Assembly: GCA_965224465.1 (NCBI GenBank)
Contig: OZ245049.1
Coordinates: 1,020,001-1,052,000, forward strand
Reading direction: 5' to 3'
Length of the DNA: 32,000 bases
Source of the DNA: Flavobacteriaceae bacterium
GTDB lineage: Bacteria > Bacteroidota > Bacteroidia > Flavobacteriales > Flavobacteriaceae
This document shows, piece by piece, positions 1-11,765 of this stretch (position 1 is its first letter; each line of letters opens with the position of its first letter). The notes beneath the pieces were generated by a model. That model was not told where the DNA came from. It was given only the letters and a program-made list of their open reading frames with translations, and searched no databases. Position numbers and translations under genes: made by a program.

Positions 1-118
1 CTAAGAATAGTAGCGGATTTCAAGGTACGAACCTTTCAATTTATCACTAAACTTTATTCAAAGATACTCACTTTTAATTTAGCAAAAAAACCGCTATTAT
101 TTTTATACATTGTTAGTC
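1..118. repeat. Short inter-cassette element S0 (attC-like imperfect inverted repeat), cut by the window edge
   Basis: Arms 1-16 (ctaagaatagtagcgg) and 91-106 (ccgctattatttttat) are complementary apart from two G:T positions. There is an internal hairpin at 22-35 (aaggt-acga-acctt). The architecture matches element S1 at 4851-5050. GTTAG at 112-116 overlaps the RT stop codon. Confidence 0.5.
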
Positions 119-1999
119 ATTCGCCTTATTTTTATTCCGTTCTAATACTTGATAATAGTAACTAAAAGGTTTGTCATAAAATATGATTTGTTTTTTTCTT
201 TCTATGTCGTCTTCATCATCATCTTCCTTTTCTTTTTCAAGATTTTTGACAGACTTTAACAAGTCGTAATATAATTTACTACGATTCCTATCTAACTGTT
301 TAATTTGTAATATTGAATCTTTATTTAGACTTAATTCCTTAAAACCATTTTTCCAACACATATCTGTTGAAACTTCTTCAAAATTGTTTAACCCAATTCT
401 TCCAACTGACATTCCAATTAATCTATTTATTGCAGATTCAATAACATATCCTTTGAATTTTCTTTGTCCAAGTTCGATTGCTTTTTCAATTTCATTTACT
501 ATCTTTTTCTGCTTTTTAAGTTCTTTTTCTAATGAATTTTTTCTAACACGAATGTTTCCTTTATGATGAATTTCATATCCAACAAAACTAATCCAAGGAA
601 AGCCATTATTATGGATTGAATCCCATTTATATGCTCCTTTTGATTTAGTGTGCCAAAATGGTTTAATTGTAAATTCGGTTTTACTTATCTTCTCTGTTAA
701 TTCATATACAAACTTATGTGGAACTAATTTCAACTCTTTTAAACAGTTTTTGTAAATGTTTTTTGCTTTTTCACATATTTTTTTATCCTTATGTATTATT
801 AGCATATCATCACAAAATCGAATATAAAAGACTTCTGTTTTTAACAATTCTTTATCAGCCTCATTTAGTACAATGTTTGCAATTAATCCCGATAAAGCAC
901 CACCTTGTGGCACTCCAATTCTTTCTTCCTCAATGTTTGAATAGTATTTTAATTCTATTAATCGATTCTTAATCCAACCAAACTCGCCATTTGGTATTTT
1001 ATAACTATCCCAATATTTAGTATTATTTGATAATGGAATATTTATATTAAAAGCATAACAGTTTAAATATTCATTAAAAATATGTTTCACAATTTTGAAA
1101 TCAAAATCTGGATTATCTTCTTTTGATTTATCTATTAAATTGTTAAATAGTTTTTTTACGATTTTATGATTAACTGAATCGTAAAATTTTTCCATATCAC
1201 ATTCAACAACAAACAATGGTTCATAGTTGTTTTTCTTTTGTAATTCAATAACGTTTTTTATACAATCGTGATGTGAAATCGTAGATGTTCCTTCCTTATT
1301 TTTTTTTGAACGAAAAGCGTATGAAGAATCTTGAAAATATCCATCAAATAAATTAGTTAGAAATTTATTTGATATACTTAAAATAATTCTTTCTTTCAAT
1401 GAAAACATTGAAATAGGGCGACATTTATTAGTTTCAGTTTTAGAAATTAATTCCTCCTTTAGTTTTGGGAAAACAAGAGGCCTTTTTATATTAAAATCAT
1501 CATTTTCAATTGCTGATTGAATATTTTTTACAAACTTATCAAGTTCTATAAGCCAATTTACTTTAGGGTCTTTTTTTCGATAAAGTTTTATTGTTTTTAA
1601 TATTGAATAAAAATTTTTATCATTTGAAGTTAATTTTTCAGTTCCATCTCTATTCATTCTTGATTTGCAACCAAGTTTTACCCATTTTTTTCGTGGTGGA
1701 AGAATTTTACTTAATTGATTGTTTAACTCAAATTGATATTTTGAAAATTCATTTTCATCAACTATTTTTTGTTCTTTGAGATGGTAATTATATTTATCAG
1801 AATCAGTTAAAAGATGAATTAGGTGTTTTTTATTTCGAGTTTTAGCAATTTTAACACGTAATTTACAAATGTGAGTTACAATTGCTCTTTCTGTAAAATA
1901 TGTAGAAAATTCTTTCATAATATAAAATAAGAAAAAGGGTTCCTGTAAAGTGCTTACGCACATATTGACAAAGATACTGACATATAAATGTCGAGCCAT
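113..1999 (-). CDS. Reverse transcriptase (RNA-directed DNA polymerase), family not assignable by eye (group-II-like, retron or UG/Abi type)
   Basis: 628-aa ORF with the RT motif series: FVVECDMEKFYDSVNH (motif 3), GVPQGGALSGLIANIVLNEAD (motif 4), YIRFCDDMLII (YxDD-type catalytic motif) and ISFVGYEI (motif 7). It has a long N-terminal extension and an acidic C-terminal tail. An alternative start at 1918 (MKEFSTYF) is possible. Confidence 0.85.
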   Translation of the reverse strand: MARHLYVSIFVNMCVSTLQEPFFLFYIMKEFSTYFTERAIVTHICKLRVKIAKTRNKKHLIHLLTDSDKYNYHLKEQKIVDENEFSKYQFELNNQLSKILPPRKKWVKLGCKSRMNRDGTEKLTSNDKNFYSILKTIKLYRKKDPKVNWLIELDKFVKNIQSAIENDDFNIKRPLVFPKLKEELISKTETNKCRPISMFSLKERIILSISNKFLTNLFDGYFQDSSYAFRSKKNKEGTSTISHHDCIKNVIELQKKNNYEPLFVVECDMEKFYDSVNHKIVKKLFNNLIDKSKEDNPDFDFKIVKHIFNEYLNCYAFNINIPLSNNTKYWDSYKIPNGEFGWIKNRLIELKYYSNIEEERIGVPQGGALSGLIANIVLNEADKELLKTEVFYIRFCDDMLIIHKDKKICEKAKNIYKNCLKELKLVPHKFVYELTEKISKTEFTIKPFWHTKSKGAYKWDSIHNNGFPWISFVGYEIHHKGNIRVRKNSLEKELKKQKKIVNEIEKAIELGQRKFKGYVIESAINRLIGMSVGRIGLNNFEEVSTDMCWKNGFKELSLNKDSILQIKQLDRNRSKLYYDLLKSVKNLEKEKEDDDEDDIERKKQIIFYDKPFSYYYQVLERNKNKAND

Positions 2000-2061
2000 T
2001 TTTTTTAAGTCCTCTGGTAAATGACTAAAAAATACCGTTGAAGAGGATGATACTTACGAGA

Positions 2062-3090
2062 TTAACCCGCCTCAGAACCCTTTTTCTTCTGTTGTTTAGT
2101 TAAATATCCTTTTTCGTTTGCTAAATGTATTATTGAATTAAATTTTATTGAACCATTTCTTGATTCATAACAGTTTTCTAAAAAATTAGCACAATTAGTT
2201 TCATCATACTTCTCTTTATCGATTGCACTAAATCGTTTAAAATAGTTCAATCCAATATCATAGGTGAATGAATTAGAAATAGACATTGCAACCTTGTACC
2301 AATTTTCATACGAAGTTGTTATAGATGAATTTTTACGTTCTAAAAACTTAATTATTGCACCTATTGTTTTTCTATCACTTTGATTGTTCCTATTTAGTGG
2401 GTTAAGTAGCGAATCTTTGCTACTAACACTTTTTACTTTTATTGTTTTTTCTTTTTTTTCAGTATTCAGTACTAATAGGTCAGATTCTGAAATTTCAAAT
2501 GATTGATAATTTTCTTTTAAAATCAATTCATTATCATAAGAAAAAAAACACAAACGTGTTGTATCGCTTCCACTTTTGTCTAATTCAATATCATAATTAC
2601 TCTTAAAATAGTCAGAAAGTTTTTTGAAAGCACTTCTGTGTGCTAAATCAAGATTCTCATTATTTAGTTCAAATTTATATTGAATAGAAATCAACCCTTT
2701 TATTCCTTTATTAGATGGCGATTTCCAAAAAGTAAAAATTAAAGGGTCTTTATCTAAAAAGCACCAAACTTTTTTTAATTCCTCATTTTCAAGTTTGTCA
2801 ATGTCAATTACAATAATTGAATTATATTTTTTTAATTGTTCTTTTCTTCTTTTGTTTTCGAATGTTGCACAAAATGTTATTGCTGGTAATTTTACTTTTT
2901 GTTTGTCGTATTCGGCTTTATTTCCGTTTTTAAGATGAGTTCTTAAATTCTCAATTTTTGATTTATATATATCAGATTTTATTAGTCTTAAAGATTCTTG
3001 AATTGTAATCTCTTTCGATAATGTTGCCCAAGTGTTTTCTTGATACGATACGTTATATTTTAATATTTTTTTTATTGAATTCAAGAGCAT
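2062..3090 (-). CDS. AEP-superfamily primase-like protein (BT4734/VirE_N-like N-terminus plus PriCT-like C-terminus)
   Basis: 342-aa ORF lying 62 nt upstream of the RT on the same strand. It has an IIVIDIDKL acidic DxD-type motif preceded by LPAITFCATF, as in BT4734-like primase N-domains. The C-terminal WYKVAMSISNSF...GLNYFKRFS...YDETNCANFLENCY resembles PriCT. Recognised by motif only. Confidence 0.5.
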   Translation of the reverse strand: MLLNSIKKILKYNVSYQENTWATLSKEITIQESLRLIKSDIYKSKIENLRTHLKNGNKAEYDKQKVKLPAITFCATFENKRRKEQLKKYNSIIVIDIDKLENEELKKVWCFLDKDPLIFTFWKSPSNKGIKGLISIQYKFELNNENLDLAHRSAFKKLSDYFKSNYDIELDKSGSDTTRLCFFSYDNELILKENYQSFEISESDLLVLNTEKKEKTIKVKSVSSKDSLLNPLNRNNQSDRKTIGAIIKFLERKNSSITTSYENWYKVAMSISNSFTYDIGLNYFKRFSAIDKEKYDETNCANFLENCYESRNGSIKFNSIIHLANEKGYLTKQQKKKGSEAG

Positions 3091-3120
3091 TTTTTTTAGA
3101 GTATCGTTTTTGGGTGATGG

Positions 3121-3812
3121 CTAACACCTCTATATCCACAATAGCAACCCTAAAGTTGACGTTATTTCCGCAATACCTACAAGCACTACAGAGGCTGTTA
3201 AATTTATAGTTTAAAGGTAGTTAATAATTTAAATCACCAGTATATAACTGGCGTATTTATTAACAAAAATTTACTGTAAAGTGTTACATGCATACTTTGT
3301 AGTATTTGCAGTACTTGTAGGGGTTTAATTGGTGCTAATTCCTTAGGGAACGGTGTGTTTTTTAGCTGTATGATTTATTTTAACAGTATTATCACTTCTA
3401 AAAACAGGAATACTGGGTGTATTTTACGCTTAAAAAGTCTTCGTATTCAAACAATCGTTTTAACCGTTTAAAACGGTTATTTTAAGGACAAGAATAAAAA
3501 TTAAGTCTTCTTTTTAAAAAAAATATTGCCGTCAGGTACTAATAACAGAATAAAAAAACAAACATAGCCACGTAAAGGGAAACGCATGCCAAAACACTAC
3601 TGACCAACACTTATCCGTATCAAAAAAACAGTAAAAACATATTCCACAAAAGAGCGTGAGAGCAAATAACCTAAAAACAGGTGGTATCTATTAAGGTCTT
3701 TGTCTATAGCCTCTTAATTAATTGCACGTAATCCCGACAGAAACAGGTTTTGAACCGGTGTAGTCAACAGGATGTTCATGCTGGGCGCTACGCACCGCAC
3801 GAACACTTAGTT
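3121..3812. repeat. Inter-cassette module A (variant: conserved L part 3121-3171, unique insert 3172-3535, conserved R part 3536-3812)
   Basis: The ends align with modules B-E: ctaacacc..gttgacgttatttccg on the left, and gtactaata...cacgaacacttagtt on the right. The middle has no counterpart in the other copies. Confidence 0.85.
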
Positions 3813-3824
3813 ATTGCCAAAACG

Positions 3825-4844
3825 TTACTTATTTTGTTTAACACCTTTAACATATTCTATTCGTTTAATCACAGTTCCGTTTGCATTATATTCTTTCCAA
3901 ATCCCCTCTTTTTTCATTTTGTTTTTTTCTCCCGAATAATATAGTTTACCTGTGTTATCGTAATATTTAAAATAGTAACTATCTCTACTCTCATTGTAAT
4001 TAACAACTTCTTGCAATGTTCCGTTAGTTCTAAAAAGGGTATATTTTGTACGTTTTTCATTTTTAATAAAGAATTCAAGTTTAGACATTGATTTAGTCTC
4101 GGAGAAGTAGTGTTTCCACTGATTAGCCATTTCTCCATTTAAATATTCTCCTGTTTTTTTAATATTCCCATTGGAAAAATAACTTACCCATATTCCATTT
4201 TTCTCATTATTCAAATAAACACCAGCACTTGATAGCTTTCCATTTTCATGATAATACGCACATTTTCCATGTTTTCTACCTTTCGAATACTTAATTTTCA
4301 TTTGCAGTGTGCCATCAGAATATTCAAATATCCATACTCCTTCACGATAATTCTCTTTATTTATTCCTTTATAAAAAAAAGAACCGCTTTGATGATAACT
4401 TATATTGACCCCGTGACAAACTCCAGATTTAAAATTTTCAACACCTCTAATCTCGCCATTTTCTCTAAAATCCTTCCATTCTCCGTGTTTTTTTCCTTTT
4501 TTGTAGTTCCCTATAGAACTTAAGTAATTTCCAAAATAATATATTTTCCATTCTCCATCTTTTAGATCATTAGCATAGTTCCCTTCACTTTCTTTTTTCC
4601 CTGTATTTCGTTTATAATAAATCCAATGACCCTTCCTTCTTCCATTGGAGTAATTCCCTTCTTTAATTTTATTCCCAGTATCTTGGTTAAAATAAACCCA
4701 ATGACCTTCTTTATTCCCATTGGAATAAACACCCTTATTTTCAATTATTTCGGACACTTCAATTGATTCAATTTCTTCTTGGGAAAAGGAATTAATTGAA
4801 AACAAGAAAATAATAATATTTGTAATTAAGTTAATTTTTTTCAT
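3825..4844 (-). CDS. Secreted MORN-repeat-variant (YwqK-like) protein
   Basis: N-terminal signal peptide MKKINLITNIIIFLFSINSFSQ, followed by repeated G.W..YY.NG......G.Y.NG...G.W units typical of the MORN variant / YwqK antitoxin-like family. Confidence 0.7.
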   Translation of the reverse strand: MKKINLITNIIIFLFSINSFSQEEIESIEVSEIIENKGVYSNGNKEGHWVYFNQDTGNKIKEGNYSNGRRKGHWIYYKRNTGKKESEGNYANDLKDGEWKIYYFGNYLSSIGNYKKGKKHGEWKDFRENGEIRGVENFKSGVCHGVNISYHQSGSFFYKGINKENYREGVWIFEYSDGTLQMKIKYSKGRKHGKCAYYHENGKLSSAGVYLNNEKNGIWVSYFSNGNIKKTGEYLNGEMANQWKHYFSETKSMSKLEFFIKNEKRTKYTLFRTNGTLQEVVNYNESRDSYYFKYYDNTGKLYYSGEKNKMKKEGIWKEYNANGTVIKRIEYVKGVKQNK

Positions 4845-5796: not shown

Positions 5797-6429
5797 CTTC
5801 CCCACGTATATCATCAATAAACTTCTAAAACTTGACGTTATTTCCGTTATGTCTATAATAGTTTCGGGGTATGTGTTGTTTTATTGTTAAAAGTATTCAA
5901 ATTTTTTAAATTTTCAAGCGTTCCACGATTTTTTAATTGTTAATTTCGATGGTCTTGGTGTAAATCTCTGTGATTTTTGTAGAAACAGATCCTAAGCACA
6001 ATTACAATCCAAAATACCCAATATAAATAGTTTAATTCACGTTCTAACGTTGTTAAAAAACAGAACAACTGTAAGATAGAAAAACTCAAAACCGTCTATC
6101 TATTTAGCGGAAGAGGCTCACACCTACTTATTGGTTACAACAACCAATAAAGCATGTACTAATAAGCAAAAAAAATAAACGTAGCCACGTAATGGGAAAC
6201 GCATTCTTAAACCCTGCTGACCAATACTTATCCGTATCTAAAAACGGCGCAAACCAATTCCTACAAAAGAGCGTGAGAGAAAATGATCTAAAAATAGGTG
6301 GTATCTATTAAGGTCTTTGTCGATAGCCTCTTAATTAATTACACGTAATCCCAACAGAAACAGGTTTTGAACTGGTGTAGTCAACAGGATGTTCATGCTG
6401 GGCGCTACGCACCGCACGAACACTTAGTT
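5797..6429. repeat. Inter-cassette module B (~630 bp)
   Basis: Near-identical by eye to 7387-8014, 8911-9540 and 11107-11753. Components: L part with CGTTAT-ttc-CGTTAT (5836-5850), truncated MITE head (about 5998-6066), palindrome 6128-6150, R part 6156-6429 with hairpin 6389-6423. Confidence 0.9.
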
Positions 6430-6454
6430 GTTGTGTGCTGGCTTTTTCTCACTT

Positions 6455-6919
6455 TTATTCATTAAAATAGTTTTCTGGCCATAAATAATCCGGCAAATGG
6501 TTTTTTATCATTTCAACCGCACTATCATACCCTCTTGCTTCTAATTCTCTGACAAAAAATGGCCAAGGTGGAATATTACTATTATAAGAATTTGATGAAG
6601 AGGTTGACATTCCTCCACCTTGTGAAGTAGATAATCCACCATATTGTGAAGTAGAAAGTCCACCATACTGTGAAGTAGATAATCCACCGTATTGTGAAGT
6701 CGAAAGCCCTCCATATTGTGAAGTTGACATTCCTCCATATTGAGAGGTTGACATTCCTCCATATTGTGATGTTGAAAGACCCCCATATTGAGATGTGGAC
6801 ATTCCTCCGTATTGGGAAGTTGACATTCCTCCATATTGCGAAGTAGATAATCCACCTCTTTGGCTTGTACTTAAATTTCTAGGCCAAGTTCTTAAATTTT
6901 TTATTATTGGTCTGCTCAT
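6455..6919 (-). CDS. Low-complexity STSQYGG-repeat protein with a unique C-terminal domain
   Basis: 154-aa ORF with 11 tandem octapeptides [LM]STSQ[YRG]GG, then a non-repetitive C-terminus PPWPFFVRELEARGYDSAVEMIKNHLPDYLWPENYFNE. It lies 12 nt downstream of ORF 6931..7353 in the same cassette. Confidence 0.65.
   Translation of the reverse strand: MSRPIIKNLRTWPRNLSTSQRGGLSTSQYGGMSTSQYGGMSTSQYGGLSTSQYGGMSTSQYGGMSTSQYGGLSTSQYGGLSTSQYGGLSTSQYGGLSTSQGGGMSTSSSNSYNSNIPPWPFFVRELEARGYDSAVEMIKNHLPDYLWPENYFNE
6599..6874 (-). repeat. 24-bp tandem coding repeat (about 11.5 units) inside ORF 6455..6919
   Basis: Period-24 units such as gaagtagataatccaccatattgt, gaagtcgaaagccctccatattgt and gatgtggacattcctccgtattgg differ mainly at codon third positions. 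Confidence 0.9.
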
Positions 6920-7386: not shown

Positions 7387-8014
7387 ATAACACCCATATA
7401 TCCTCAATAAACTTCCAAAACTTGACGTTATTTCCGTTATGTCTATAATAGTTATGTGTTGTTTTATTGTTAAAAGTATTCAAATTTTTTAAATTTTCAA
7501 GCGGTACACGATTTATTTATTGTTAATTTCTATGGTCTTGGTGTAAATCTCTGTGGTTTTTGGAGAAACAGATCCTAAGCACAATTACAATCCAAAATAC
7601 CCAATATAAATAGTTTAATTCACGTTCTAACGTTGTTAAAAAACAGAACAACTGTAAGATAGAAAAACTCAAAACCGTCTATCTATTTAGCGGAAGAGAC
7701 TCACACCTACTTATTGGTTGCAACGAATAAAAGCATGTACTAATAACCGAACAAAAAAAAATAAACGTAGCCACGTAATGGGAAACGCATTCTTAAACCC
7801 TGCTGACCAATACTTATCCGTATCTAAAAACAGTAAAAACATATCCCACAAAAGAGCGTGAGAGAAAATGACCTAAAAATAGGTGGTACCTATTAAGGTC
7901 TTTGTCGATAGCCTCTTAATAAACTTCGCGCAATCCCCATAGTATCATCTTTTGAGCCGGTATAGTCAACACTATGTTCATGCTGGGTGCTACGCACCGC
8001 ACGAACACTTAGTT
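7387..8014. repeat. Inter-cassette module C (~630 bp)
   Basis: Aligns with modules B, D and E. It carries the C/E-type variant block in the R part and lacks the tcggggt heptamer present in the other copies. Hairpin at 7974-8008. Confidence 0.9.
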
Positions 8015-8026
8015 ATTGGCAGTAGT

Positions 8027-8910: not shown

Positions 8911-9540
8911 CAACACCCGTATATCATCAATAATCTCCTAAAACTTGACGTTATTTCCGTTATGTCTATAATAATTTTGGGGTATGTGTTGTTTTATTGT
9001 TAAAAGTATTCAAATTTTTTAAATTTTCAAGCGTTCCACGATTTTTTTATTGTTAATTTCGATGGTCTTGGTGTAAATCTCTGTGATTTTTGTAGAAACA
9101 GATCATAAGCACAATTACAATCCAAAATACCCAATATAAATAGTTTAATTCACGTTCTAACGTTGTTAAAAACAGACCGATTGTTAAATAGGGAAACTCA
9201 AAACAGCCTATCTGTTTAGCGGAAGAGAACCTCCTGCCTATTGGTTGCAACCAATAAAAGCATGTACTAACTAACCGAACAAAAAAATAAACGTAACCAC
9301 GTAATGGGAAACGCATTCTTAAACCCTGCTCACCAATACTTATCCGTATCTAAAAACGGTGCAAACCAATTCCTACAAAAGAGCGTGAGAGCAAACAACC
9401 TAAAAACAGGTGGTATCTATTAAGGTCTTTGTCGATAGCCTCTTAATTAATTACACGCATCCCCATAGTAACAGATTTTGAACCAGTATAGTCAACACTG
9501 TGTTCATGCTGGGCGCTGCGCACCTCACGAACACTTAGTT
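8911..9540. repeat. Inter-cassette module D (~630 bp)
   Basis: Aligns with modules B, C and E. Perfect palindrome tattggttgcaaccaata at 9239-9256. Hairpin at 9500-9534 with changes in the loop, the bulge and the closing pair. Confidence 0.9.
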
Positions 9541-9551
9541 GTTACCACCAA

Positions 9552-11090
9552 TTATTCTTTTTTGAATACTGCTAAATGTTCAAGCATAGATACATTACTA
9601 CCTTTCTTTTTAATTGTTTCAAATATTTTTATTCCACTTGGCAAAGGTTTAAAAAACTCACTTCGATTTGCTTTCAGGCATTTTATAAGTGGAGATTTAA
9701 ATTTTTTCGGAAACGTAATTGTAAAAAGTTCATTGGATTTAATGAAATAAATTAACCAGATTAAGTCATATTGATTGTCTTCAATATTCTTCATTTTCTC
9801 ATTGAATATATTCTCAATTGCATTTTCAATTTTAGTCATTACTGACTTGTTTTTAGAATATTTGTCAACTATTTTTTCAATTATGGCAAGAATTTGAGGG
9901 AATGATTTATATCTGCGTTCTTTCAATAAGAGTAAAAGACTTATTGCTTTCATCAAATTCTTTTCATTAAAATCTAACTTCAAGTTGAAAGTGTTTGAAG
10001 AAAGTTCACTTAAAAATCGGTCAACAACACCAGTTCCTTTATGTTGCTTATCTACTTTTAAAGTTCCTCTCAATGATTTTTCAAATCTATTATAAGAGAT
10101 TTTGTTCTTATAGCGTAATGAAAATTGTTGGTAATCAGCAGTCCACTCTCTGAATAAACCTTCAGGTAATTCACTTACTATTGACTTGTCATCATTTAGT
10201 GACAAATTGAAGTCTTTTAATTTCTTTTGAAGTATTCGTATTATTTTATTTGCGTCTTCTTTTGATTGACAAAGAATTCTATAATCATCTTTAAATCGAA
10301 CTGCTAAAAAATCAATATTTAGTTTATCTATCTCTTTTGAACTTTCTGTATCAACTGCTGTTAAAATTATTTCTGCAATTAAATCCGAAATTGCAGGACC
10401 AATAGGAATTCCATTAGTACAACCATCATTTGCGTATTGTATTAATTTATCCAGTTTTAACCCTAAAAATTTATCGTATGCACTTCTATTTCCACTTGTT
10501 CTAATAACTTTTTTTGTGTGAATTGCCCAAGCAATACTATGCGTGTAAATAGAGGGGTAAAAGTTCTTTATGTCTGTTTTCAGAATGAATTTGTAATTAA
10601 ATGCTTCTGCTACTAAATCATTTTCAGCCATTTCCAAAAACTCATAAATCATTCTTCCTGCTCTTAAATGACCTAATTCTCCTTCATTTTTTTTTGTAAC
10701 TGGAATAGGAAAACTGTAACAATAAATTTTATTTTTTGAGTTAAATAAATGGTCTATTATTAAATCCCATTCGTTCATTAAGTACCAAACTATATCGTGA
10801 TATATTTTTGGTTCAATAATACCAAATGTCCTATCTGTTAACTGTGTCTTAGGAAATGAGACATTTATTAATTCACTTTTTACAACTTCAAATTTCGGAT
10901 TTACTCCCGTAGTATCAACTTCAATGTATGGAGTTGGATTTAAGTCAAATTTTGAGACATTAAATGTTGGAGGAACGATATATTGCTCTGGAAAATAGCC
11001 TTCCTCTAATAACCATTTTGCAACTTTTTCAGTAGGAACACCTTTTAAAAGTTTTTTTGTTTCAAAGAAATGTTTTCTGGGTAGTTGCAT
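9552..11090 (-). CDS. Reverse transcriptase, stand-alone, UG/Abi-like (defence-type) candidate
   Basis: 512-aa ORF with LKTDIKNFYPSIYTHSI (motif 3), NGIPIGPAISDLIAEIIL (motif 4) and AVRFKDDYRILC (xxDD catalytic motif), followed by a ~200-aa helical C-terminal extension. It is not similar to the RT at 113..1999. Confidence 0.8.
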   Translation of the reverse strand: MQLPRKHFFETKKLLKGVPTEKVAKWLLEEGYFPEQYIVPPTFNVSKFDLNPTPYIEVDTTGVNPKFEVVKSELINVSFPKTQLTDRTFGIIEPKIYHDIVWYLMNEWDLIIDHLFNSKNKIYCYSFPIPVTKKNEGELGHLRAGRMIYEFLEMAENDLVAEAFNYKFILKTDIKNFYPSIYTHSIAWAIHTKKVIRTSGNRSAYDKFLGLKLDKLIQYANDGCTNGIPIGPAISDLIAEIILTAVDTESSKEIDKLNIDFLAVRFKDDYRILCQSKEDANKIIRILQKKLKDFNLSLNDDKSIVSELPEGLFREWTADYQQFSLRYKNKISYNRFEKSLRGTLKVDKQHKGTGVVDRFLSELSSNTFNLKLDFNEKNLMKAISLLLLLKERRYKSFPQILAIIEKIVDKYSKNKSVMTKIENAIENIFNEKMKNIEDNQYDLIWLIYFIKSNELFTITFPKKFKSPLIKCLKANRSEFFKPLPSGIKIFETIKKKGSNVSMLEHLAVFKKE

Positions 11091-11106: not shown

Positions 11107-11753
11107 GATAACGTTACTGACTATGTATACTCCATATATCATCAATAAACTCCTAAAACTTGGCGTTATTTCCTTTATGTCTATAATAGTTTCGGGGTTT
11201 GTGTTTTTTTATTGTTAAAAGTATTCAAATTTTTTAAATTTTCAAGCGTTCCACGATTTTTTTATTGTTAATTTCGATGGTCTTGGTGTAAATCTCTGTG
11301 ATTTTTGTAGAAACAGATCCTAAGCACAATTACAATCCAAAATACCCAATATAAATAGTTTAATTCACGTTCTAACGTTGTTAAAAAACAGAACGACTGT
11401 AAGACAGGAAAACTCAAAACTGTTTATCTGTTTAGCGGAAGAGGACCTCCTGCCTATTGGTTACAACCAATAAAAGCATGTACTAATAACCGAACAAAAA
11501 AAACGTAGCCACGTAATGGGAAACGCATTCTTAAACCCTGCTGACCAATACTTATCCGTATCTAAAAACGGCACAAACCAATTCCTACGAAAGAGCGTGA
11601 GAGCAAATGACCTAAAAACAGGTAGTATTTATTAAGTTCTTTGTCTATAGCCTCTTAATTAATTACACGCAATCCCCATAGTATCATCTTTTGAGCCGGT
11701 ATAGTCAACACTATGTTCATGCTGGGCGCTACGCACCGCACGAACACTTAGTT
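11107..11753. repeat. Inter-cassette module E (~630 bp)
   Basis: Aligns with modules B-D. The conserved core starts about 11128, and gataac at 11107-11112 is a possible junction. Hairpin at 11713-11747. Confidence 0.9.
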
Positions 11754-11765
11754 ATTGGCAACTGG

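Follow-up and report, generated by a model that had tools for sequence, protein, structure and literature searches.

We analyzed a 32,000-nucleotide (nt) stretch of DNA of a Flavobacteriaceae bacterium (GenBank assembly GCA_965224465.1, contig OZ245049.1, positions 1,020,001 to 1,052,000 of the forward strand), which is called the window here. Close to its beginning the minus strand encodes a stand-alone primase-polymerase of the AEP type (PrimPol) and, downstream of it, a reverse transcriptase (RT) of the family UG39. We observed that the junction of the two genes is occupied by a conserved structured RNA of 152 nt (1932..2083, minus strand), a candidate UG39 non-coding RNA (ncRNA). This element was newly found in this study. 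It is very probably a real functional element and, by analogy with related systems, it probably serves as a template. We consider it rather probable that the UG39 RT, the RNA template and PrimPol make up a three-part system of the DRT type. That the system acts against phages also appears rather probable to us.

A conserved structured RNA between the PrimPol and RT genes

Relatives were collected by a pattern search with one genome per species, and this gave 73 loci encoding them (numbered with L below). The RNA of the window was delineated with a covariance model, RNAalifold and a minimum free energy (MFE) fold, and it contains six helices on the minus strand. About 20 nt at its 5' end overlap the end of the PrimPol open reading frame (ORF), whose stop codon (2064-2062) lies in the loop of helix P2. 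On its 3' side, 14 nt separate the RNA from the RT start codon. Helix P1 closes the whole element. Its 5' strand, AGGGUUCU (2074..2081), falls within the last PrimPol codons and pairs with the 3' strand, AGGAACCCU (1936..1944); a U-rich tail and then the RT start codon come next. In the alignment 94% of the P1 cells were paired, and according to RNAalifold the helix may reach about 5 bp further outward. Wholesale compensatory versions of P1 were present in L029 and L047 (GGGGUCGG/CCGACCCC), in L041 (GGUUAGUUCC/GGAACUAACC) and in L048 (UCAGUAGC/GCAACUGA).

The P2 hairpin (GCGGG / UCUCGU, 2056..2070) was 91-93% paired, with changes on both sides in 5 of 7 pairs. It is followed by a conserved single strand, AAGUAUCA (2055-2048), and by P3 (UCCUC/GAGGA) with the inner helix P3b (GGUA/UACC) and a variable loop (together 2010..2047). 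P3 was 94-98% paired and all five of its pairs were compensatory. The P5 hairpin (GACAU UUAU AUGUC, 1979..1992) was the weakest helix; 62% of its cells were paired in the MAFFT alignment and 78% in the alignment fitted to the model. A compensatory version of it, AUACA/UGUAU, was found in L024. The P4 hairpin (GUGC GUAA GCAC, 1950..1961) carries mostly a GNRA tetraloop, was 80-91% paired and had 3-4 of its 4 pairs compensatory. Between P5 and P4 the RNA has its longest unpaired stretch of near invariance, AGUAUCUUUGUCAAUAU (1962..1978), which would be the candidate template. Most clades, the distant Pedobacter one among them, retain its CAGUAU, and some have one-base variants of it.

The spacer sequences were conserved across loci and the differences between them were of the compensatory kind. 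From the plain MAFFT alignment of 28 loci RNAalifold predicted P1, P2 and P3, with 18 of 26 pairs changed on both sides; P3b, P5 and P4 were added to this structure by inspection. For the resulting six-helix structure, 86.8% of the cells in the plain MAFFT alignment can pair, compared with 39-51% when the partners are slid by 1-3 columns. Compensatory changes were seen there in 21 of 32 pairs, and the observed values were reached in none of 500 shuffles. The model-fitted alignment, which is biased towards the structure, gave 90.5% of paired cells and 26 of 32 compensatory pairs.

In 57 of the 73 loci, many of them not used in model building, the covariance model had a single match, and each match ended 10-25 nt before the RT start codon. 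Two loci with a divergently oriented PrimPol gene, L070 and L072, were matched weakly (E 0.14 and 0.018, respectively). The 5.2-Mb genome of the window was matched once, at window 2083..1932. Further, the MFE fold of the window copy alone contained all six helices (-39.2 kcal/mol, z -3.58). A search of the RNA against Rfam gave no family at the gathering score, and none was detected in window 1-4200 even at E 1. The element was described in no paper among the full-text literature searched.

In loci beyond the reach of the model, the ends of the spacer form a long complementary pair before the RT start, as judged by eye, for example GGGAGGAGGAUGGG...CCCAUCCUCCUCCC in L082. The RNA of the Pedobacter/Sphingobacterium clade is a shorter variant of approximately 130 nt, which appears to be without P3 and P4. 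We also looked for a pseudoknot in which the P3b loop would pair with the linker ahead of P5. Matches of 7-8 bp were present in some clades (L016, L032, L046, L020, L021, L028) and absent from others, and the shuffle test gave a median p of 0.55, with p < 0.1 in 7 of 28 loci.

The reverse transcriptase, its PrimPol partner and their pairing

The first-pass annotation had described two minus-strand ORFs, 3090..2062 (342 amino acids, aa) and 1999..113 (628 aa), with a gap of 62 nt. Both were found there and the gap is correct for the mechanical ORFs, but the real RT start is most likely M28, at window 1918. RT homologues number more than 700, and more than 100 of 590-620 aa start at the corresponding MKEF. 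The RT_UG39 model of PADLOC starts matching at residue 31 of the 628-aa ORF, and the first 27 codons of that ORF are without conservation; its ATG falls within the conserved RNA element. The closest relatives have a stop codon one codon 5' of the MKEF start, and the open stretch upstream of the RT start has a median of 8 codons (52 loci). Because the homologues start at M28 and a stop codon lies just upstream, the RT gene (113..1918, minus strand) would encode 601 aa, with a spacer of 143 nt to the PrimPol stop codon.

On profile evidence the RT almost certainly belongs to UG39. It matched RT_UG39 of PADLOC with an E of 5.5e-201, covering positions 2-540 of the 541 in the model, and the next PADLOC models were UG17 (1.7e-26), Drt9 (9.7e-24) and Drt2 (1.1e-20). 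The Drt9 match was partial, covering residues 154-419, and it does not place the RT in UG28. The sole Pfam domain was RVT_1 (E 1.3e-20), which passed its threshold. NCBIfam models of Drt2 and Drt3a were matched far under their cut-offs. The FCDD box already seen in the first pass is located at nt 817-806; it is invariant in a 17-sequence alignment of the family, across which R-F-C-D-D-M is kept. Group II intron maturase with a ribozyme, which had been named as a competing identity of this RT, does not describe it. TIGR04416 was matched at 102 bits against a cut-off of 300, and no ribozyme flanks the gene in the cassette. A retron identity was likewise rejected: retron_St85_RT scored 40.9 bits against 235, no retron RNA family was matched in the Rfam search, and no retron model was among the 25 listed of the 34 PADLOC families matched.

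We compared the fold of an AlphaFold2 model of the RT (pLDDT 78) with the PDB. The best matches were five cryo-electron microscopy structures of the DRT9 RT-ncRNA complex (E ~1e-12, ~570 aligned columns), followed by DRT2. The N- and C-terminal regions also align with DRT9. The acidic tail noted in the first pass is present, as a variable, often acidic linker that in UG39 RTs precedes a conserved P-[FY]-S-Y motif; in the window the motif is PFSYYYQ (aa 584-590, 149..169, minus strand). Y587 of this motif (nt 160-158) is a candidate priming tyrosine. All 17 aligned members of the family have the S-Y core, as do 22 of another 23 RT tails, with identities as low as 26%; the sole exception is L082, whose RT ends right after the active site. 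The occurrence of P-[FY]-S-Y near the RT C-terminus is newly noted here, and by analogy it may correspond to the priming tyrosines of DRT9.

The PrimPol gene (2062..3090, minus strand) encodes 342 aa; the N-terminal domain is BT4734/VirE-like and the C-terminal one is PriCT-2. The primase-like identity, which had been proposed by eye together with a DxD motif, was borne out by Pfam: BT4734-like_N was matched at E 5.4e-27 (95 bits, cut-off 22.4) and PriCT_2 at E 1.1e-6 (29.3 bits, cut-off 22). The RTasVirE-PriCT2 model of PADLOC was matched over its full length (E 4.5e-128). The DxD motif (D96/D98, nt 2805-2797) was invariant in 60 homologues, in which S124-P-S126, G129, K131, H151, D171, D176 and R179 were also kept. 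In the fold comparison of an AlphaFold2 model (pLDDT 87) the top matches were all AEP PrimPols but weak, and a sequence search against the PDB gave no match. Since the catalytic residues of PrimPol and RT are invariant, both enzymes look catalytically intact and, from their sequences, appear active.

Outside the RT-associated PADLOC model, the best named match of the partner was PrimPol_Db of NCBIfam, CRISPR-associated PrimPol (CAPP) type B, at E 3.6e-18. Its score of 65.9 bits is far under the cut-off of 200 and, unlike CAPP, the partner has no cas genes or CRISPR array nearby. CAPP are AEP PrimPols at CRISPR adaptation loci, where they are proposed to turn single-stranded into double-stranded DNA.

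A PrimPol homologue was located directly upstream of the RT gene, on the same strand, in about 60 of the 73 loci, and in nearly all of those whose RT identity is at least 29%. In three loci (L070, L072, L081) the PrimPol gene is divergently oriented. The first-pass annotation had asked whether the two genes co-occur elsewhere, and they clearly do. The spacer from the mechanical PrimPol stop to the RT start was 63-227 nt in 59 of 60 same-strand loci; the apparent overlap of the genes in L079 is an artefact of the PrimPol frame being read beyond its homologous end.

The pair is thus real, but it is not novel, because Mestre et al. (2022, NAR 50:6084, PMC9226505) and PADLOC both contain UG39 with the VirE-PriCT2 protein. 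In the main text of PMC9226505, UG39 is a class 2 UG/Abi family, split from UG28 and formerly called 'UG28b', and it is specifically associated with a VirE + PriCT-2 protein (cluster 64). The locus in the window shares all traits of this definition, namely a full-length RT profile, a VirE-PriCT2 neighbour, no extra domain fused to the RT and a Bacteroidota host. The main text of that paper contains no ncRNA and no functional test for UG39; relative to it, this study adds the RNA element, the S-Y motif at the RT C-terminus and the alternative partners of distant clades. Our full-text searches found no later paper naming UG39.

Distant RTs without PrimPol still matched UG39 at E 1e-83 to 1e-173. 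Their upstream slot holds other genes. A protein with TPR, DUF7017 and S1CSD-TOTE-2 domains was observed in L075 (1116-3830), L077 (1864-3783) and L082 (1493-3841), the single-strand-binding protein SSB in L076 (3071-3637) and a DprA-like protein in L080 (127-954). These replacement partners are all encoded on the same strand and are all binders of single-stranded nucleic acid. Because of this the product of UG39 is probably single-stranded DNA. The swapping would be consistent with such a product being passed to the partner, and we treat it as a lead.

Proposed mechanism by analogy with class 2 relatives

Among class 2 UG RTs, those characterised (DRT2, DRT9 and DRT10) all have a structured template ncRNA encoded directly ahead of the RT. 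In DRT9 an upstream ncRNA and two priming tyrosines in the C-terminal tail support protein-primed synthesis of poly-dA (PMC12483538). DRT9 (UG28; PDB 9nlx, 9nlv, 9ioa, 9vma, 9vku) is the closest solved structure and belongs to the former sister group of UG39. In both systems a structured ncRNA directly precedes the RT on its 5' side, a separate toxin is absent, and conserved tyrosines are found in a flexible C-terminal tail; priming in UG39 may be proposed by analogy. In contrast, DRT9 alone has a universal poly-uridine template tract, while UG39 has the additional PrimPol gene and an RT longer by about 100 aa, and the sequence relation between the two RTs is at the level of the RT superfamily.

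DRT10 (UG17) consists of an RT, an ncRNA and a SLATT protein, and makes telomerase-like tandem-repeat DNA from an A-B-A' template that follows a stem-loop (PMC12632851). Its RT is of class 2 too, and UG17 was the second-best PADLOC model. In UG39 the nearly invariant unpaired stretch just 3' of the P5 hairpin contains an imperfect direct repeat, UGUCAgUAU ... UGUCAaUAU, and in the main clade a UGUCA-N7-UGUCA repeat follows P5, which there is suggestive of an A-B-A' arrangement. Unlike in DRT10, this repeat is not kept in several clades, where the second box is UGCCA or shortened, and the partner is PrimPol instead of a SLATT membrane protein. DRT2 (UG2) has an RT and an ncRNA and proceeds through rolling-circle cDNA and second-strand synthesis to a de novo gene, neo. 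It is the second-best structural relative (9c0i) and shares with UG39 the class 2 RT and an upstream ncRNA closed by a long-range stem. Since DRT2 needs second-strand synthesis, PrimPol would be a natural dedicated enzyme for such a step. The differences are that concatemers of the UG39 RNA have no endless frame, and that its sequence is highly conserved while DRT2 ncRNAs diverge.

All steps of the mechanism that we propose follow by analogy from these three class 2 relatives. The RT would bind the 152-nt RNA both as scaffold and as template. DNA synthesis would start from a tyrosine in the flexible C-terminal tail of the RT itself (PFSYYYQ). The RT would then make single-stranded DNA, probably by repeated copying of a short segment of the RNA that is unpaired, most likely 1978-1962. 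PrimPol would prime and extend on this DNA to give a second strand, or process it otherwise. During phage infection the DNA product, and not a separate toxin, would halt the phage or the cell. We regard this mechanism, taken in full, as tentative and more probably wrong in some part than right in every one.

Several observations weigh against this explanation. The UG39 RNA has no poly-U tract like that of DRT9; the conserved U run in the unpaired core is just UCUUUG, or UAUUUUC in the Pedobacter clade, and none is universal. The UGUCA...UGUCA direct repeat is lost in several clades, for example as UGCCA in L013, L016, L021 and L027, and two-base matches between A and A' are expected by chance, hence uninformative. 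P5, the putative template-boundary hairpin, is the helix with the weakest pairing. Coding of the Neo kind was rejected after the segment between the two AGUAUC boxes had been concatenated, as no consistent open frame was obtained and the unit lengths were mostly not multiples of three. Because there is no universal poly-U, no endless frame and no A-B-A' pattern kept everywhere, we put forward the nearly invariant unpaired stretch at 1978-1962 only as the best candidate for a template. The RT tail, which carries the candidate Y587, was modelled at low confidence (pLDDT < 50). Further, the PrimPol model had no significant structural match in the PDB, and no recognisable effector is present in the cassette. 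The defence prediction for UG39 is graded 'inconclusive' in the main text of PMC9226505, our full-text literature searches found no experiments on UG39, and the tally of PADLOC matches among neighbouring genes, given below, consists of raw counts without a matched control.

Genomic context, rival explanations and significance

We compared window 1-4200 with the loci of relatives by blastn. The closest relatives were 86% (L010, a Flavicella metagenome-assembled genome), 87% (L038, binned as Oleispira) and 80% (L012, an uncultured Kordia) identical, and no homology was observed outside the module. The unit common to relatives in other genera comprises PrimPol, RNA and RT (89..3125, minus strand, 3.04 kb). 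As nucleotide homology stops at 3125 and 89, these three parts move as one unit. The module is present in a single copy in the genome of the window, and its region is AT-rich, with 24-27% G+C compared with 30-38% deeper into the window. The distribution is patchy: of 401 genomes sampled from the phylum, 4 (~1%) carried UG39.

Upstream of the PrimPol gene lie 734 nt (3091-3824) that belong to a genome-wide repeat with 78 blastn matches. This leader of the cassette array is non-coding and approximately 700 nt long, and about ten full-length copies were 78-97% identical; copies include genome 1209823-1210219, 1216927-1217336, 1229415-1229840 and 1657873-1658292. Its distal 285 nt occur in dozens more copies, including window 6153-6433, 7734-8021, 9261-9547 and 11477-11761. 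At least 12 unrelated genes have their start codon 10-50 nt past the end of its proximal 410 nt; the repeat is therefore the generic leader of the array and not a part of the RT system. The first-pass annotation had considered that a nearby ncRNA may be needed and had pointed to the upstream leader. A conserved structured RNA does exist, but between the genes. The leader as ncRNA of the system was rejected, as it is repeated before unrelated genes across the genome and showed no blastn homology in the loci of relatives. The claim that the pair behaves as one cassette held, since no array repeat lies between the genes, homology with relatives is limited to 3125..89 and the upstream 734 nt are a genome-wide repeat.

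In other genomes the 271 ORFs flanking the module fell into 227 clusters. By raw PADLOC counts, the 150 nearest neighbours included matches to AriA, AbiLi, PDC-M38A, type IIG and type I restriction-modification, MADS, GajA and PtuA, and Pfam matches included AbiEi/AbiEii and HsdM/HsdS. Specific clades are located beside AbiEi/AbiEii or inside a type I restriction-modification operon. In ten Pedobacter/Sphingobacterium loci (L050, L051, L053, L055-L059, L063, L066) an AbiEi-like (358 aa) and an AbiEii-like (260 aa) gene lie directly upstream on the same strand, at about 1000-2800. In the window the same array carries a UG14 RT (9552-11090, minus strand) as a single-gene cassette, matched over its full length by RT_UG14 of PADLOC (E 1.4e-216). 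This RT is of class 1, akin to Drt6, Drt4 and AbiP2, and unrelated to the UG39 RT. It was the only PADLOC match among the ten neighbouring ORFs scanned, which had no Cas family in Pfam. Taken together, the context fits an accessory, horizontally moving defence module and not machinery that propagates the array.

At window 6455-6919 and 3825-4844, on the minus strand, other cassettes code for proteins with ALTTAQ repeats (E 3.5e-16) and with MORN_2 repeats (E 2.6e-13), and four further cassette proteins had no Pfam or PADLOC match. About 105 nt after the RT stop (window 2-108) resemble genome 1222845-1222950 (73%) and 3076654-3076738 (75%), and may be the cassette-end element S0 of the first pass. 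Outside the window, approximately 165 nt downstream of the UG39 RT stop, lies a separate element, a group II intron (L009 10035-11948, genome ~1018035-1019948) with Rfam matches to D1-D4 and domain V and its own RT of 420 aa. The genome has at least 14 further RT matches of the group II kind, several of them clustered at 527-558 kb. UG39 modules of Bacteroidota type were also present on contigs binned as Oleispira (L038), Burkholderiales (L045) and Bifidobacteriaceae (L039), which reflects either mis-binning or recent transfer between phyla.

The RNA structure could be read in another way, as a cis-acting leader of the RT mRNA that affects translation, stability or coupling to PrimPol, and not as a trans-acting ncRNA and template. 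The RT would then need no RNA template, as is the case for class 1 Abi RTs, or would use other RNAs. An element that ends 14 nt before the RT start and overlaps the PrimPol stop with its 5' part has a layout typical of coupling or occlusion; in addition, no template was identified in the RNA, and no separate promoter or terminator has been shown for it. Yet a structured template ncRNA occupies the same position in all of DRT2, DRT9 and DRT10, and the fold of the RT is nearest to the RT-ncRNA complexes of DRT9 and DRT2. With six helices and unpaired motifs of near invariance spread across 150 nt, the element exceeds what a simple translational operator would need, and it stays with the RT where PrimPol is divergent or replaced. 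We consider a cis-acting leader unlikely and prefer the ncRNA as part of a three-part system.

Two further rivals concern what that system is for. A role in host DNA metabolism, for example damage tolerance or repair synthesis, is suggested by the E. coli PrimPol-RT fusion (PPRT), which is described as contributing to the oxidative DNA-damage response, with a dual role (PMC12439943), and it draws on the inconclusive defence grading of UG39 in the main text of PMC9226505 as well. However, PPRT is a fusion whose RT comes from another lineage, and a household role sits poorly with a module that occurs in about 1% of the genomes of the phylum, is transferred horizontally as a unit, has variable neighbourhoods rich in defence genes and shares its array with another UG/Abi RT (UG14). 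We regard such a role as quite improbable. About as improbable, in our estimate, is a module for replication or mobility, whether a retroelement, a primase set of plasmid or phage replication, or a spreader of the array modules. Mobile elements commonly carry AEP PrimPols with PriCT-2 in their replication modules, and the PHROG matches of the partner were phage primases. The cassette lies within an array of many repeated leader elements, and the L010 relative has a tyrosine recombinase (Phage_integrase, E 1e-40; 1604-2749) immediately upstream of the PrimPol gene. Against this, the module has no helicase, Rep protein or terminal repeats, and its RT is of the UG/Abi lineage and not of the group II intron or retron kind. 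The genome contains one RT-PrimPol module against 78 leader matches, and relatives lie in unrelated contexts, in which blastn found no homology to the leader or flanks. The suggestion made in the first pass that this pair copies and moves the modules of the array is not supported. Its main suggestion, a defence-type module of RT and primase, has the support that sequence can give, from the UG39 profile, the VirE-PriCT2 partner, their pairing and the RNA.

What is new in this locus is the RNA element with its helices and unpaired core, the candidate priming tyrosine, the corrected RT start and the bounds of the unit (89-3125). Should nothing unusual emerge from it, this would be just another catalogued defence cassette, located in a cassette array of the Bacteroidota. 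DRT2, DRT9, DRT10 and the class 2 RT of DRT3 each wrote DNA in an unusual way from a small RNA, the products being a de novo gene, poly-dA, telomerase-like repeats and poly(GT/AC), respectively. By analogy with them, and speculatively, UG39 might be a self-contained immune module that leads from RNA to double-stranded DNA, with a tyrosine-primed RT, second-strand synthesis by PrimPol and repetitive double-stranded DNA as the effector. If this doubtful reading is true, UG39 would be the first DRT that brings its own enzyme for the second strand; in distant clades other single-strand binders (S1/CSD-TOTE, SSB, DprA) fill the PrimPol slot. UG39 lets the division of first- and second-strand synthesis between two enzymes be tested.

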